NCBI GenBank assembly: GCA_037924335.1 | Contig: JAXSMZ010000008.1 | Coordinates: 4,793-38,755, forward strand | Length of the DNA stretch: 33,963 bases | Direction: 5' to 3' | Origin: Aquificaceae bacterium | Lineage (GTDB): Bacteria > Aquificota > Aquificia > Aquificales > Aquificaceae | In this document: positions 1-3,063 of the stretch, piece by piece | Numbering within the stretch: position 1 is the stretch's first letter | Layout of the letters: each line of letters starts with the position of its first letter | Notes under the pieces: model-generated | What the model was told of the DNA's origin: nothing | What the model saw: the letters and a program-made list of their open reading frames with translations, nothing else | The model's database searches: none | Made by a program: the position numbers and the translations under genes

Positions 1-52
1 CTCTTTATAACATATCCATACAACCAAAAGTGTCAAGGGGTCTTTATGTTTC

Positions 53-85
53 TAAACTTCTATATGCGTCTATAAACTTCTATAT
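53..85. repeat. 13-bp direct repeat TAAACTTCTATAT x2, 20-bp period
   Basis: Exact copies at 53-65 and 73-85. A minus-strand TTGACA (+ strand tgtcaa, 31-36) lies just beyond them. Confidence 0.7.
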
Positions 86-94
86 ATTCAGTGA

Positions 95-817
95 TTAGTT
101 TCTAATACCTTTTTCCTTTATTTTTGCGTACACGAGGAGTGTGGCGTAAAGGTAATAAAGGATTAAAACAAGAATTAACAAAATAACCACTCCAAAAGAT
201 AAAAGAGCGTTCTTCCAAGATTCTTTACCTTGCGCAAGGTCTATCAAAGCACCAAATCCAACAAAGGCTATGAGCAGTATAAAAGAAAGGACTAACATCA
301 ATAACGAGAGAATAGTCATCCCTAAATACAATCCTAAAGAGGGCGCTATGTAGTCCCAAACCTTGCTTACTGTAATCTCTCCCTCGTGCCTATCACTGAA
401 GTAGTCTACAAGGTAGAGAATGCAAGAATAGATGAGCAAGGTGAATACAATTTTAAACAAGAAACCCACCATAGGCAGAAAACTGAGCAAGAGCGTTATG
501 AGAAGTATGAAAGAAAATAACGCAAAAAAGCCCACGTTTGCTTTTAGAAATTCCCAACTCTCGGAGAATATGCTATAGGTCTTATTCTGATGACCTTTAA
601 AGGTTAGTCCCAAAACTTCCAAGTTAAAGAAGGGATACTTTAACTTAGCTTCCTTTAGGGATCTTATCTCCTCTTCTGTGAGGTCCAACTCTAAAAAGCC
701 TACACTTTCAAGCTTCTCCTCACAGTTCTGAGGCACGCTTTTTAAAAAGCCGTAAAGGAGGCTACATAAAAACTCCTTTGGGACATCCTCAGAAGTTCTG
801 CTTACTCTTACTTTCAT
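95..817 (-). CDS. Hypothetical integral membrane protein, possibly 3'-truncated
   Basis: 240-aa ORF with a soluble N-terminal ~85 aa followed by about 4 hydrophobic helices. No recognisable catalytic motif. Confidence 0.7.
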   Translation of the reverse strand: MKVRVSRTSEDVPKEFLCSLLYGFLKSVPQNCEEKLESVGFLELDLTEEEIRSLKEAKLKYPFFNLEVLGLTFKGHQNKTYSIFSESWEFLKANVGFFALFSFILLITLLLSFLPMVGFLFKIVFTLLIYSCILYLVDYFSDRHEGEITVSKVWDYIAPSLGLYLGMTILSLLMLVLSFILLIAFVGFGALIDLAQGKESWKNALLSFGVVILLILVLILYYLYATLLVYAKIKEKGIRN

Positions 818-864
818 GATCCCTTCGACTGGTACTTTGTATTATATATTTGACAAAGCTCATC

Positions 865-1066
865 GTGACTTCCTCTCCTCATTAAAATGAGGAGCTTCCC
901 TTTCTCAGGGCTTAACTTCCCGTCAGTCCAACGGTAGGGTATGCTATATCCCGCATACCAGAGGATATTATTATAATTTTTTCTTTGTTTTTTTGTTGTA
1001 TGATTTTGATCATATTTCCACAATTCATCTCTCCTTTGAAAAGGAGAGCCTTCTTGTGGTGCTTCC
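865..1066 (-). mobile_element. Non-autonomous IS200/IS605-family mini-element (PATE-like, 202 bp) with an omegaRNA-like right end
   Basis: Minus strand: target TTAC (1070-1067), 14 nt, guide AAGG, left hairpin CTCTCCTT-TTCA-AAGGAGAG (1048-1029). Right end: guide GAAG, hairpin CTCCTCAT-TTTA-ATGAGGAG (894-875), then 10 nt ending in TCAC (868-865). The internal ACCGTTGGACTGACGGGAAGTTAAGCC (TVGLTGS*) resembles a tnpB 3' end. No tnpA or tnpB ORF. Confidence 0.75.
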
Positions 1067-1135
1067 GTAAACTGCTCTATCCTTATTATAAGAGGTTGTA
1101 GTTTGAGATAGTTTGAAAGAGCTTTAAGTATAATA

Positions 1136-1774
1136 ACGCAAGTTGCAAGTTATATTAGGTTCATTTTCCACATTCTATATAGATTGTAGGAAACCACAGC
1201 AGTATAGATTTTTATAAGAAGCCCACGCAAACTAACAGAATAAGGTCTCATACCGATAAATCTTTTAAGGACACTAAACACACTCTCCGCAAGCCTCCTG
1301 TATAACCTCTTCGCATACTCAATCCACTCACCCTCATACCTGCTCTCCTTTACACTCCTTAAGGGTGTAAGCAGTATGCCCTCTTCCCTCAAAATGTCCT
1401 CCATCAGATAATCCTTGTATGCCTTATCACATATGACCTCCTTACTTCCTACACAGTAAAAGCTCATGTTTGCCAACTTTCACTGGCATACTGTCAATTA
1501 GGTAGTATCTTTCCTACATCTGTGGTAGACATACAAGTTTTAATGTGATGGTTTGCATATAAGGTAGCAGTTTTTCAAGTCTTCTTGAGAAGGTAGATTT
1601 ATCAGGGACTTTAGGAAAGAGATGACTACTCAAGAGCTTTTGAGTAGTTTGCACAGAAATCTGTGTGGGCTATGACTGCCATTGTTAACACCTCAGAGTT
1701 AGATATTACCGCTCTATGGGAATGCTCCATAGGGAGCTTTTTTACCATATCTCTTTATAACTTGCAACTCGGGT
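1136..1774 (-). mobile_element. Degenerate IS982-family insertion sequence (639 bp)
   Basis: Terminal inverted repeats ACCCGAGTTGCAAGTTATA (minus strand from 1774) and ACGCAAGTTGCAAGTTATA (1136-1154) match at 17/19, with the ACCC terminus typical of IS982. Flanked by the 7-bp direct repeat TATAATA (1129-1135 and 1775-1781). Confidence 0.88.
1150..1748 (-). pseudogene. IS982-family DDE transposase, disrupted by stops, frameshifts and an internal deletion
   Basis: Fragments MVKKLP...SNSEVLTMAVIAH...*, FPKVPDKSTFSRRLEKL...*, YYLIDSMPV (first D), CDKAY (second D) and RRLAESVFS (E) lie in different frames. ORF 1150..1476 is only the C-terminal piece. Confidence 0.85.
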
Positions 1775-1783
1775 TATAATAAT

Positions 1784-1810
1784 AAAAAACCCACACTCAA
1801 AGGTGTGGGT
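1784..1810 (-). terminator. Rho-independent terminator of the porin gene
   Basis: Minus strand ACCCACAC-CTTTGA-GTGTGGGT followed by a T-run, about 25 nt after the porin stop. Confidence 0.8.
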
Positions 1811-1833
1811 AAGAACAAGAGAAAGAGCCTTTA

Positions 1834-3063
1834 TCAGAATATGGTTTGAAGAGCCAAGGTCCAGTCTGTGAAGTTTTTGCCTTTACCTATCACGTTACCG
1901 TTTTGGTCCTTGACGGAGTTAAAGTTCTTCATAGCGGCATTTGGATTTACTATATCTGCACCAAGGCTTACTAATGCGTTCCAGCCTTTCAGGTAGTAGT
2001 TGAAGAATATGCTAGTTCTGTTCACTTTGCCTTTTGCAGATAGGTCTTTGAAATCCTTGTACTCTGAATACTCATACTTAAGGGCAAGAGCGGGCTTTCC
2101 GAAACCTACAACTTGGTCATAGAGGAGCTGGCTTTGTGCATAGTAGGCGTTTGTCTTAGGCTTTGTATTGTTGCCAAGCGTAATTGGAAGGCTTGATTGT
2201 CCAATATACCCCAACTGAAGGTTTGGTACAAGGTCACCGAACTTTTGTTCCCACATGGCGTCAATAGTAAAGGACTTTGCAGTACCAGACTTGCCTGCGT
2301 TGTCATCCCACTTCTGAGCCCAGTAAGCTACGCCTATGTTAAGAACGTTCTGCTTTCCGAGGTAGCTGTCTGCCTTACCCCAGCCTTTTTCAGCTTTGAA
2401 TCCAAGCATTATGGGGTTTAATTCAAGTCTTATACCATAGGCAAGGTTGTCCTTTTTGCCCAGATTGGCATCTATATGGTCAAACTTACCATCAAACACG
2501 CCCAATCTATACTGGAGTAAACCATCGGCTATGTTGCCCCATAATGATATACCAGCATCCCTATCTCCTGCTAAGGTTGCTGGAGCAAAAGGGTTCCAAG
2601 ATGGTGCTTTGTATCCTGACTGGCCATCTCCAGCCCCCCATCTTATACCTGTGGGTATTATGTAGTTCCTGGACGATGTAAGGTTGCCTCTTGCAAAGGG
2701 TACTCTGTACTTACCAGCCCTGACCTTAAACTCATCGGCAGGTTCAAGACTTATAACACCATCGTTTAAGGATGCGGAGCTTGCTTGATGACTTCCCCTG
2801 TTGGTAGTGTTGGGAGAGAAATCACCCTCAAACTCAAACTTAACCATTTTGTTGACCTGGCCAGCCATATTGATGGTTGCTCTTCTTATGGAAAAGTCTG
2901 TGTAGTCCTTTACGTCGCTCCTTGCTTTCCCCAATCTCTGTCCAGTTATTCTCAGGGTTAGGTCAAGGGAGGAAAAGGTGCTTTCGTCCAGCTTTATCAT
3001 GGCGGCTTGCACGGGTAGTGACAAAGACACCAGTATGGCGCTCGTTAAGATGAACTTTTTCAT
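1834..3063 (-). CDS. Outer-membrane porin, OprO/OprP (phosphate-selective)/ExtI-like family
   Basis: Sec signal peptide (..PVQA|A), FSIRRA and AGKYRVPF..R motifs, DRDAG, amphipathic beta-strands, C-terminal Phe (LQTIF). RBS AAGGAGG. Confidence 0.8.
   Translation of the reverse strand: MKKFILTSAILVSLSLPVQAAMIKLDESTFSSLDLTLRITGQRLGKARSDVKDYTDFSIRRATINMAGQVNKMVKFEFEGDFSPNTTNRGSHQASSASLNDGVISLEPADEFKVRAGKYRVPFARGNLTSSRNYIIPTGIRWGAGDGQSGYKAPSWNPFAPATLAGDRDAGISLWGNIADGLLQYRLGVFDGKFDHIDANLGKKDNLAYGIRLELNPIMLGFKAEKGWGKADSYLGKQNVLNIGVAYWAQKWDDNAGKSGTAKSFTIDAMWEQKFGDLVPNLQLGYIGQSSLPITLGNNTKPKTNAYYAQSQLLYDQVVGFGKPALALKYEYSEYKDFKDLSAKGKVNRTSIFFNYYLKGWNALVSLGADIVNPNAAMKNFNSVKDQNGNVIGKGKNFTDWTLALQTIF

Follow-up and report, generated by a model that had tools for sequence, protein, structure and literature searches.

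The 202-bp element that runs on the minus strand from position 1066 to position 865 of the window (the whole 33,963-nucleotide stretch analyzed here, which lies on contig C8 of a 1.53 Mb draft genome of 39 contigs and 42% G+C) is a non-autonomous, gene-less derivative of the IS200/IS605 family, a palindrome-associated transposable element (PATE). We are fairly confident that it is a non-autonomous IS200/IS605 mini-transposon with a compact predicted omegaRNA scaffold that is likely stranded in this genome without its proteins. It is a PATE by every feature tested, and its build resembles that of a stand-alone omegaRNA cassette, with no compatible effector found in the assembly. Nineteen of the 20 listed sequencing runs that contain the stretch are labelled hot-spring metagenomes.

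All features of the element are on the minus strand. The left end (1018-1066) consists of a 14-nt linker (1066-1053), the DNA guide AAGG (1052-1049) and a 20-nt hairpin (1048-1029), and in the DNA fold an outer stem is formed by 1059-1054 with 1023-1018. The right end (865-898) begins with the DNA guide GAAG (898-895), followed by a 20-nt hairpin (894-875) and 10 nt (874-865) that end in the cleavage motif TCAC (868-865). The hairpins are thus subterminal at both ends; terminal inverted repeats are absent, as is a transposase of its own. As DNA, the left end folds with a z-score of -4.1 (none of 200 shuffles as good) and the right end with -2.9 (two of 200), and the 3' 101 nt folded as RNA give -3.7 (one of 200). 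A sequence-only reading of the window had recognized this IS608-like geometry over 202 bp; each of the parts it named is in place, and both the shuffles and the 13 right ends found in the genome agree with it.

The guide/cleavage pairs of IS608 are AAAG/TTAC and GAAT/TCAA. Both ends of the element fit the same pairing rule (AAGG/TTAC on the left, GAAG/TCAC on the right), as had been deduced before, and three families in the genome show left-end guide and target varying in concert (AAGG/TTAC, GAGG/TCAC and AAGT/TTAA), with a spacing of 15 nt in the GAGG and AAGT families against 14 nt in the family of the window copy. A tnpB-only family with guide GAGG and target TTCAC (G000 C1:154564-155800 and C6:60880 onward) has nearly the same left hairpin, and its copy at C1:154564-155800 holds a 363-aa open frame. 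An origin from IS607, which carries a serine resolvase, was considered and rejected: PF00239 has no match in the genome, and the ends obey the Y1 rule.

Movement of such an element would proceed by single-strand peel-and-paste through a Y1 TnpA supplied in trans, which would read the two hairpins together with the AAGG/TTAC and GAAG/TCAC pairs. Pfam, NCBIfam and tblastn searches of the assembly yielded no Y1 TnpA beyond, at most, a tail of 15 residues (E 0.19), and among six other genomes of the genus one gave a match, a partial one. The relative G014 carries a tnpA+tnpB element (L012/L119) with an identical 20-nt left hairpin upstream of tnpA and a near-identical right end, so transposases able to read these ends exist in the family. 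The ends are common to L011 (tnpB only), L012/L119 (tnpA and tnpB) and L036/L031 (the direct parent). The complete tnpA+tnpB element of G014 (L012:1-1500, on G014:C61) adjoins a CRISPR-like repeat array.

A search of the genome for copies, as the sequence-only reading had advised, placed the right end at 13 loci, and because of this recurrence the element is not a chance structure. The copies take forms of 51, 139, 157-173, 195, 202, 218 and 706 bp. The 51-bp form is a stub and the 706-bp form a relic with tnpB fragments; the 170-171-bp form occurs in four copies at unrelated sites, and forms of 157 and 163 bp are present as well. The right boundary of the element is fixed by the differing right flanks at the 13 copies together with empty alleles. 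The twin of the window copy, 218 bp long (C2:129912-130129, L107), has the same deletion junction at an unrelated site. Directly upstream of its scaffold the twin has an expanded (TAA)n tract, which gives several TATAAT-like boxes.

These copies bear on whether the short form ever moved. Under one alternative the 202-bp unit is an immobile decay product: a full-size element inserted at this site would have shed its central part there, leaving an RNA fold that is simply inherited. The many deletion sizes, among them the decayed 706-bp relic, and the restriction of the 202/218-bp subtype to two copies would suit such a history. The twin, however, needs transposition of the short form, the roughly 170-bp form sits at four unrelated sites in this genome, and 173-bp forms have empty alleles in relatives. 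We hold decay in place to be very improbable, and prefer a mini-transposon that moved in its shortened form.

Eleven left ends could be placed; TTTAC precedes ten of them and TTTAT one. T is present at -5 in all 11, whereas only 45% of the TTAC sites genome-wide are TTTAC, so the target comprises five bases. The TTAC named by the sequence-only reading is present directly 5' of the element (1070-1067), and the conserved target, or transposon-adjacent motif, is the longer TTTAC at 1067-1071, which is host DNA outside the element.

Empty alleles were sought in relatives, using sister copies from another genome and from metagenomes. At the resulting junctions the element lies directly after TTTAC without target duplication. 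For L029 the empty allele is L085, with flank matches of 39/40 and 38/40; TTTAC is absent at this insertion spot in the other four genomes tested. Of the two alleles compared for L035, L092 matches, and for L038 the match is L097; L098-L100 likewise have TTTAC at the junction, and L101 has CTTAC there. In L078 and L079, TTTAC precedes the right flank of L033, whose left flank belongs to another locus. The sister copies thus supply the clean empty sites that had been proposed as a check, and the window copy does not: among 40 related genomes only element ends or a piece of IS982 matched and the host flanks never did, and three DNA runs and one RNA run showed no skip across the element. Runs X4 and X7 hold the filled right junction of the window copy, and the element was absent from the phages, plasmids and viral contigs searched.

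Several copies show further features of insertion. L030:2575 and L033:2075 have the same left junction, and L030 carries a 65-bp deletion that extends from the right end to a downstream TTTGC, which is what a side reaction of TnpA would give; the two flanks of this one copy derive from different loci in relatives, which suggests rearrangement through the element. The target of L045 is TTTGC, and both this target and the L030 deletion end fit TTnC. Some mini-element copies are nested, located within or abutting the 3' termini of other tnpB elements (G000 C4:27626-27795, C4:54731-54901 and C27:12330-12453). The sister copies at L029:2402 and L038:723 lie just before start codons, one of them between a Shine-Dalgarno-like AAGGAG and the ATG, and these insertions would affect how the following gene is transcribed or translated.

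Fifteen metagenome loci with the internal motif were examined for the parent, and the parent tnpB was identified in hot-spring metagenomes: the element consists of its left end, a scrap of N-terminal codons and the last ~110 bases. At L036 and L031, tnpB ORFs extend into the same 3' end as that of the element, and L040 has a partial tnpB ORF. In the last 110 nt, three positions and a 6-nt loop indel separate the window copy from L036, and the last 74 nt are identical, which bears out the earlier claim that some 100 nt of tnpB-3'-like sequence are kept. The proposed search for a parental tnpA/tnpB element was successful for tnpB in metagenomes, and in the draft assembly only a relic of the cognate tnpB and no Y1 TnpA were found. 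Full-length relatives (P0002-P0006) are 67-91% identical to the L036 protein; the tail of P0004 is the best match to the subtype of the window copy, and P0005-P0007 match the 170-bp subtype in their tails. The PATE likely arose by internal deletion of a tnpB-only parent. A 33-codon fusion ORF (912-1013) joins residues like those of the parent TnpB N-terminus in frame to the C-terminal tail; the tails of P0003 and P0004 match this region at 79-83% identity (tblastn), and the fusion of N-terminal and C-terminal codons is clearer at locus L045 than in the window copy. The ORF is probably a deletion scar and not a functional peptide.

The cognate parent protein is a TnpB by Pfam (PF01385, PF07282). 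The model of P0003 has the TnpB fold (mean pLDDT 87.6), with ISFba1 and ISDra2 TnpB as its best matches, and the tail that overlaps the RNA (residues 409-436) has a pLDDT below 50 and is predicted to be disordered. Before this tail, the cognate TnpB clade (P0001-P0008) has an extra, confidently modelled C-terminal helix (P0003 residues ~375-400), a possible substitute for the missing stem 3; P0005-P0007 appear to have both this helix and stem 3 of the RNA.

The parent belongs to a clade of over 100 TnpB clusters in which the RuvC-II site is altered: Gln occupies the Glu position in 116 of the 116 scorable parent-clade proteins, with Asp or Glu two residues on. The Asp residues of RuvC-I and RuvC-III are almost always retained, and mobile ends still enclose the gene. 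The Glu of "DRFE" was considered as a substitute catalytic residue and rejected, being Glu in 65 of 116 only. Altered RuvC-II sites are often thought to remain active, according to PMC10691335. With Gln at the RuvC-II Glu position, cleavage by the cognate TnpB appears doubtful.

The predicted omegaRNA overlaps the tnpB 3' end and stops at the transposon right end. Its 74-nt core (865-938), identical to the 3' end of the parent L036, is composed of stem 1 (934-930/924-920), a pseudoknot of the stem-1 loop with bases near the 3' end (928-925 with 870-867), stem 2 (910-908/900-898), which closes a 7-nt loop where relatives have stem 3, and stem 4, which doubles as the transposon right-end hairpin (894-875). 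A predicted 5' hairpin (938-959; 959-953 with 944-938) precedes the core, and between the two subtypes both partners differ in three of its seven pairs.

In 15 close sequences 97.5% of cells are paired, and sliding the partners lowers this to 33-50%. The pseudoknot is paired in 100% of cells in this set, and one of its four pairs covaries (U-A in 10 sequences, C-G in four, U-G in one); since that base lies outside TCAC, the DNA pairing rule does not explain its covariation. In a wider set of 21 sequences the pseudoknot is paired in 98.8% of cells with two of four pairs covarying, and 13 of 22 pairs overall change on both sides (5/5 in stem 1, 1/3 in stem 2 and 4/8 in stem 4), counts that refer to related sequences and not to independent events, with a structure drawn from these same sequences. 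The covariation may have been inherited from two or three parents. It supports stem 1, the pseudoknot, stem 2 and stem 4 as parts of an omegaRNA, and to this extent the scaffold proposed by the sequence-only reading stands, without stem 3.

Stem 3 is absent from the mini-elements and from their direct parent, which have the 7-nt loop instead, and is present in relatives; the core is accordingly 74-75 nt long, where relatives have 92-171 nt. The direct parent shares this short form, so the short core is a property of the lineage and not the outcome of mini-element decay, and on the same ground we rejected loss of the omegaRNA core by deletion in the mini-element. Judging by their protein tails, P0005-P0007 seem to retain stem 3. 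A comparison with RNA models, advised earlier, brought no family: an Rfam scan of positions 1-3000 gave three matches, all far below gathering, among them HgcC at 852-936 (17.5 bits against a gathering score of 50, E 0.56), a weak lead. Four gene-less IS605 mini-elements of other families, about 210-220 bp long (L114-L117; G000 C4:2109-2329, C23:8385-8595, C2:113611-113830 and C19:508-718), have the full stem-3 scaffold. As guides working in trans they are more promising than the window copy, because tnpB fragments that match their 3' end lie at the ends of contigs, C37 for example.

Retention of the scaffold would follow from the layout of the parent, in which stem 4 is the right-end hairpin and the promoter lies in the left end. 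A central deletion would place this promoter directly before the RNA, and with a cognate TnpB present such copies would provide it with a guide to the empty site of the element itself. Of the 14 copies tested, 10 carry in their left end a promoter-like box (TTCAAA or TTTAAA, 17 nt, then TAAAAT or TATAAT), which is likely the tnpB promoter of the parent. This box is absent from the window copy and its C2 twin; the window copy has a remnant (1012-1040) with a -35-like TTCAAA (1040-1035), 17 nt and a broken -10, AAATAT (1017-1012), where sister copies have TG-n-TAAAAT. The TATAAT at 975-970 (positions 970-975, minus strand) to which the sequence-only reading pointed is present, and it has neither a -35 box nor a TG extension; a promoter scanner found no promoter within 780-1140. 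Together with the A-rich tract upstream, this box could still start a transcript. In RNA run X20 (share 0.05, contigs only), positions 865-899 were matched through the right end of another, full-length-type element, which says nothing on this locus.

The expectation of a usable TnpB encoded elsewhere was not borne out in the assembly, where the only cognate tnpB is a frameshifted, deleted relic (C2:31808-32514); no intact one was found in the 39-contig draft. The remaining tnpB matches are remote (about 24-33% identity across long stretches) and have different ends. The assembly has no contig below 7.4 kb, and many contigs break at other tnpB elements, so that tnpA or a cognate tnpB could be unassembled; the ends of this family occur on no contig end. 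A high-copy tnpB family with a different right end (G000 C12, C13, C17, C6, C28, C38, C9, C18, C29, C2:70158 and C4:55091), mostly at contig ends, likely broke the assembly.

The would-be guide is the right flank at 845-864 on the minus strand, which reads from 864 to 845 as quoted in the sequence-only reading. No other match of at least 10 nt to TTTAY plus guide occurs in the genome (best other site 12/16), and the viral contigs hold four matches of 17 nt, none of them after TTTAC. That reading had inferred an omegaRNA working in trans, and we weighed an active trans-acting guide cassette as an explanation of its own: the locus would be transcribed, and a TnpB encoded elsewhere, from an unassembled cognate copy or another resident TnpB family, would load the RNA and target the empty site after TTTAC, thereby retaining the element. 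The scaffold is identical to the 74-nt core of the parent, 10 of the 13 copies keep stem 1 and the pseudoknot loop, the genome has 23 tnpB-like matches, relatives with an ordinary DED-type TnpB (L012) share the right end and pseudoknot, and there is published precedent. Against this, besides the missing intact cognate tnpB and the broken promoter-like box, the other TnpB families use different targets and right ends, the cognate RuvC-II site has Gln, and one RNA run held only a different, full-length-type right end (a weak negative). We judge an active cassette unlikely. Given the broken left-end -10 box and the lack of a cognate tnpB or tnpA in the assembly, the guide role of the window copy is likely idle, which accords with a mini-transposon stranded without its proteins. 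A broader and more speculative picture, which we think quite unlikely, is that a stem-3-less TnpB lineage of thermophiles runs on a natural ~74-nt core, that its Gln-bearing RuvC-II either cuts through a rearranged site or only binds, and that its gene-less offspring are self-promoted guide cassettes, some of whose guides (that of the window copy included) would aim at host promoters with possible repression, TTTAC being -35-like.

In the host genome, the window copy lies between an IS982 fragment (ORF 1150-1476) and an ORF of 240 aa (817-95). The IS982-family fragment (1133-1615) is decayed; it has several copies in the genome and is ~90% identical to copies in G017, a genome of another genus. 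The 240-aa ORF (95-817, minus strand) starts 47 bp after the element and belongs to no Pfam or NCBIfam family; it has matches in eight of 60 other family genomes, and its relatives do not exceed 35% identity. Without the element, the target and the next base would form a -35-like hexamer (4/6) placed 17 nt before a perfect -10 TATAAT (841-846, minus strand) ahead of the ORF at 817, with the would-be guide as spacer. A perfect -10 at 16-18 nt is found at only eight of the 6218 TTTAC sites in the genome, and for this reason the window copy probably occupies the -35 box of a host promoter, a reading made after the fact for one site among 13. This position supports the element junction, and from it one would expect the gene at 817-95 to be expressed differently, the present effect of the window copy likely being to replace the -35 box of its promoter. 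The case would illustrate, on a small scale, how such elements alter the control of host genes.

PATEs of IS200/IS605 were defined in Haloquadratum walsbyi (PMC3119063), and a 271-nt PATE of Halanaerobium retains the left hairpin, the final codons of tnpB and the entire right end (PMC7290912). As described in these two papers, published PATEs have in common with the element the lack of terminal inverted repeats, near-terminal palindromes, absence of target duplication and of a transposase, and an origin by core deletion of an IS605/IS1341 parent. The element differs in being a new sequence family, from Aquificaceae, with a TTTAC target, an identified parent tnpB clade and an RNA fold tested by covariation. 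PATEs often encode omegaRNAs that must act in trans (Meers et al., 10.1101/2023.03.14.532601), and activity of stand-alone omegaRNAs in trans has been demonstrated (Altae-Tran et al. 2021, summarized in PMC10691335). With these, so far as those sources go, the element shares the protein-less build, the retained omegaRNA and the right flank as guide, but the published genomes hold compatible effectors, whereas here intact cognate tnpB and tnpA were not found in the assembly and the promoter-like box is broken.

For the protein, the RuvC-II-altered TnpB clades (PMC10691335) and the nuclease-dead TldR repressors (10.1101/2023.11.30.569447) have in common with the cognate parent the replacement of the RuvC-II Glu in a TnpB; the parent differs from both by Gln with an acidic residue two places on by the kept RuvC-I and RuvC-III Asp and by a gene that has stayed within mobile ends. 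No description of this Gln motif was found in the literature searched, and the supplement of PMC10691335, outside that search, may name the clade. The Gln-type clade makes the choice between a rearranged and a dead TnpB active site testable on one protein.

The omegaRNA scaffold of ISDra2 has 116 nt with four stems and a pseudoknot; its stem 3a contacts RuvC, and only 3b was trimmed (PMC10097598). The order of parts is the same in the predicted RNA of the element (stem 1, stem 2, stem 4, guide), with the stem-1 loop pairing to -6 to -3, and the scaffold likewise overlaps a TnpB C-terminus that the model predicts to be disordered. Against the 116 nt of ISDra2, the core of the element has 74 nt, or about 96 with the 5' hairpin, and stem 3 is reduced to a 7-nt loop. 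Trimmed omegaRNA scaffolds have been reviewed (PMC13639567); the parent family has a very short natural scaffold from hot springs, offers a ready test of whether stem 3 is dispensable and bears on compact editor design. The literature searched, supplements lying outside its scope, held nothing specific on a TnpB mini-element of Aquificales. The idea of a protein-less omegaRNA element is already published, and the element described here adds one more family to that class.
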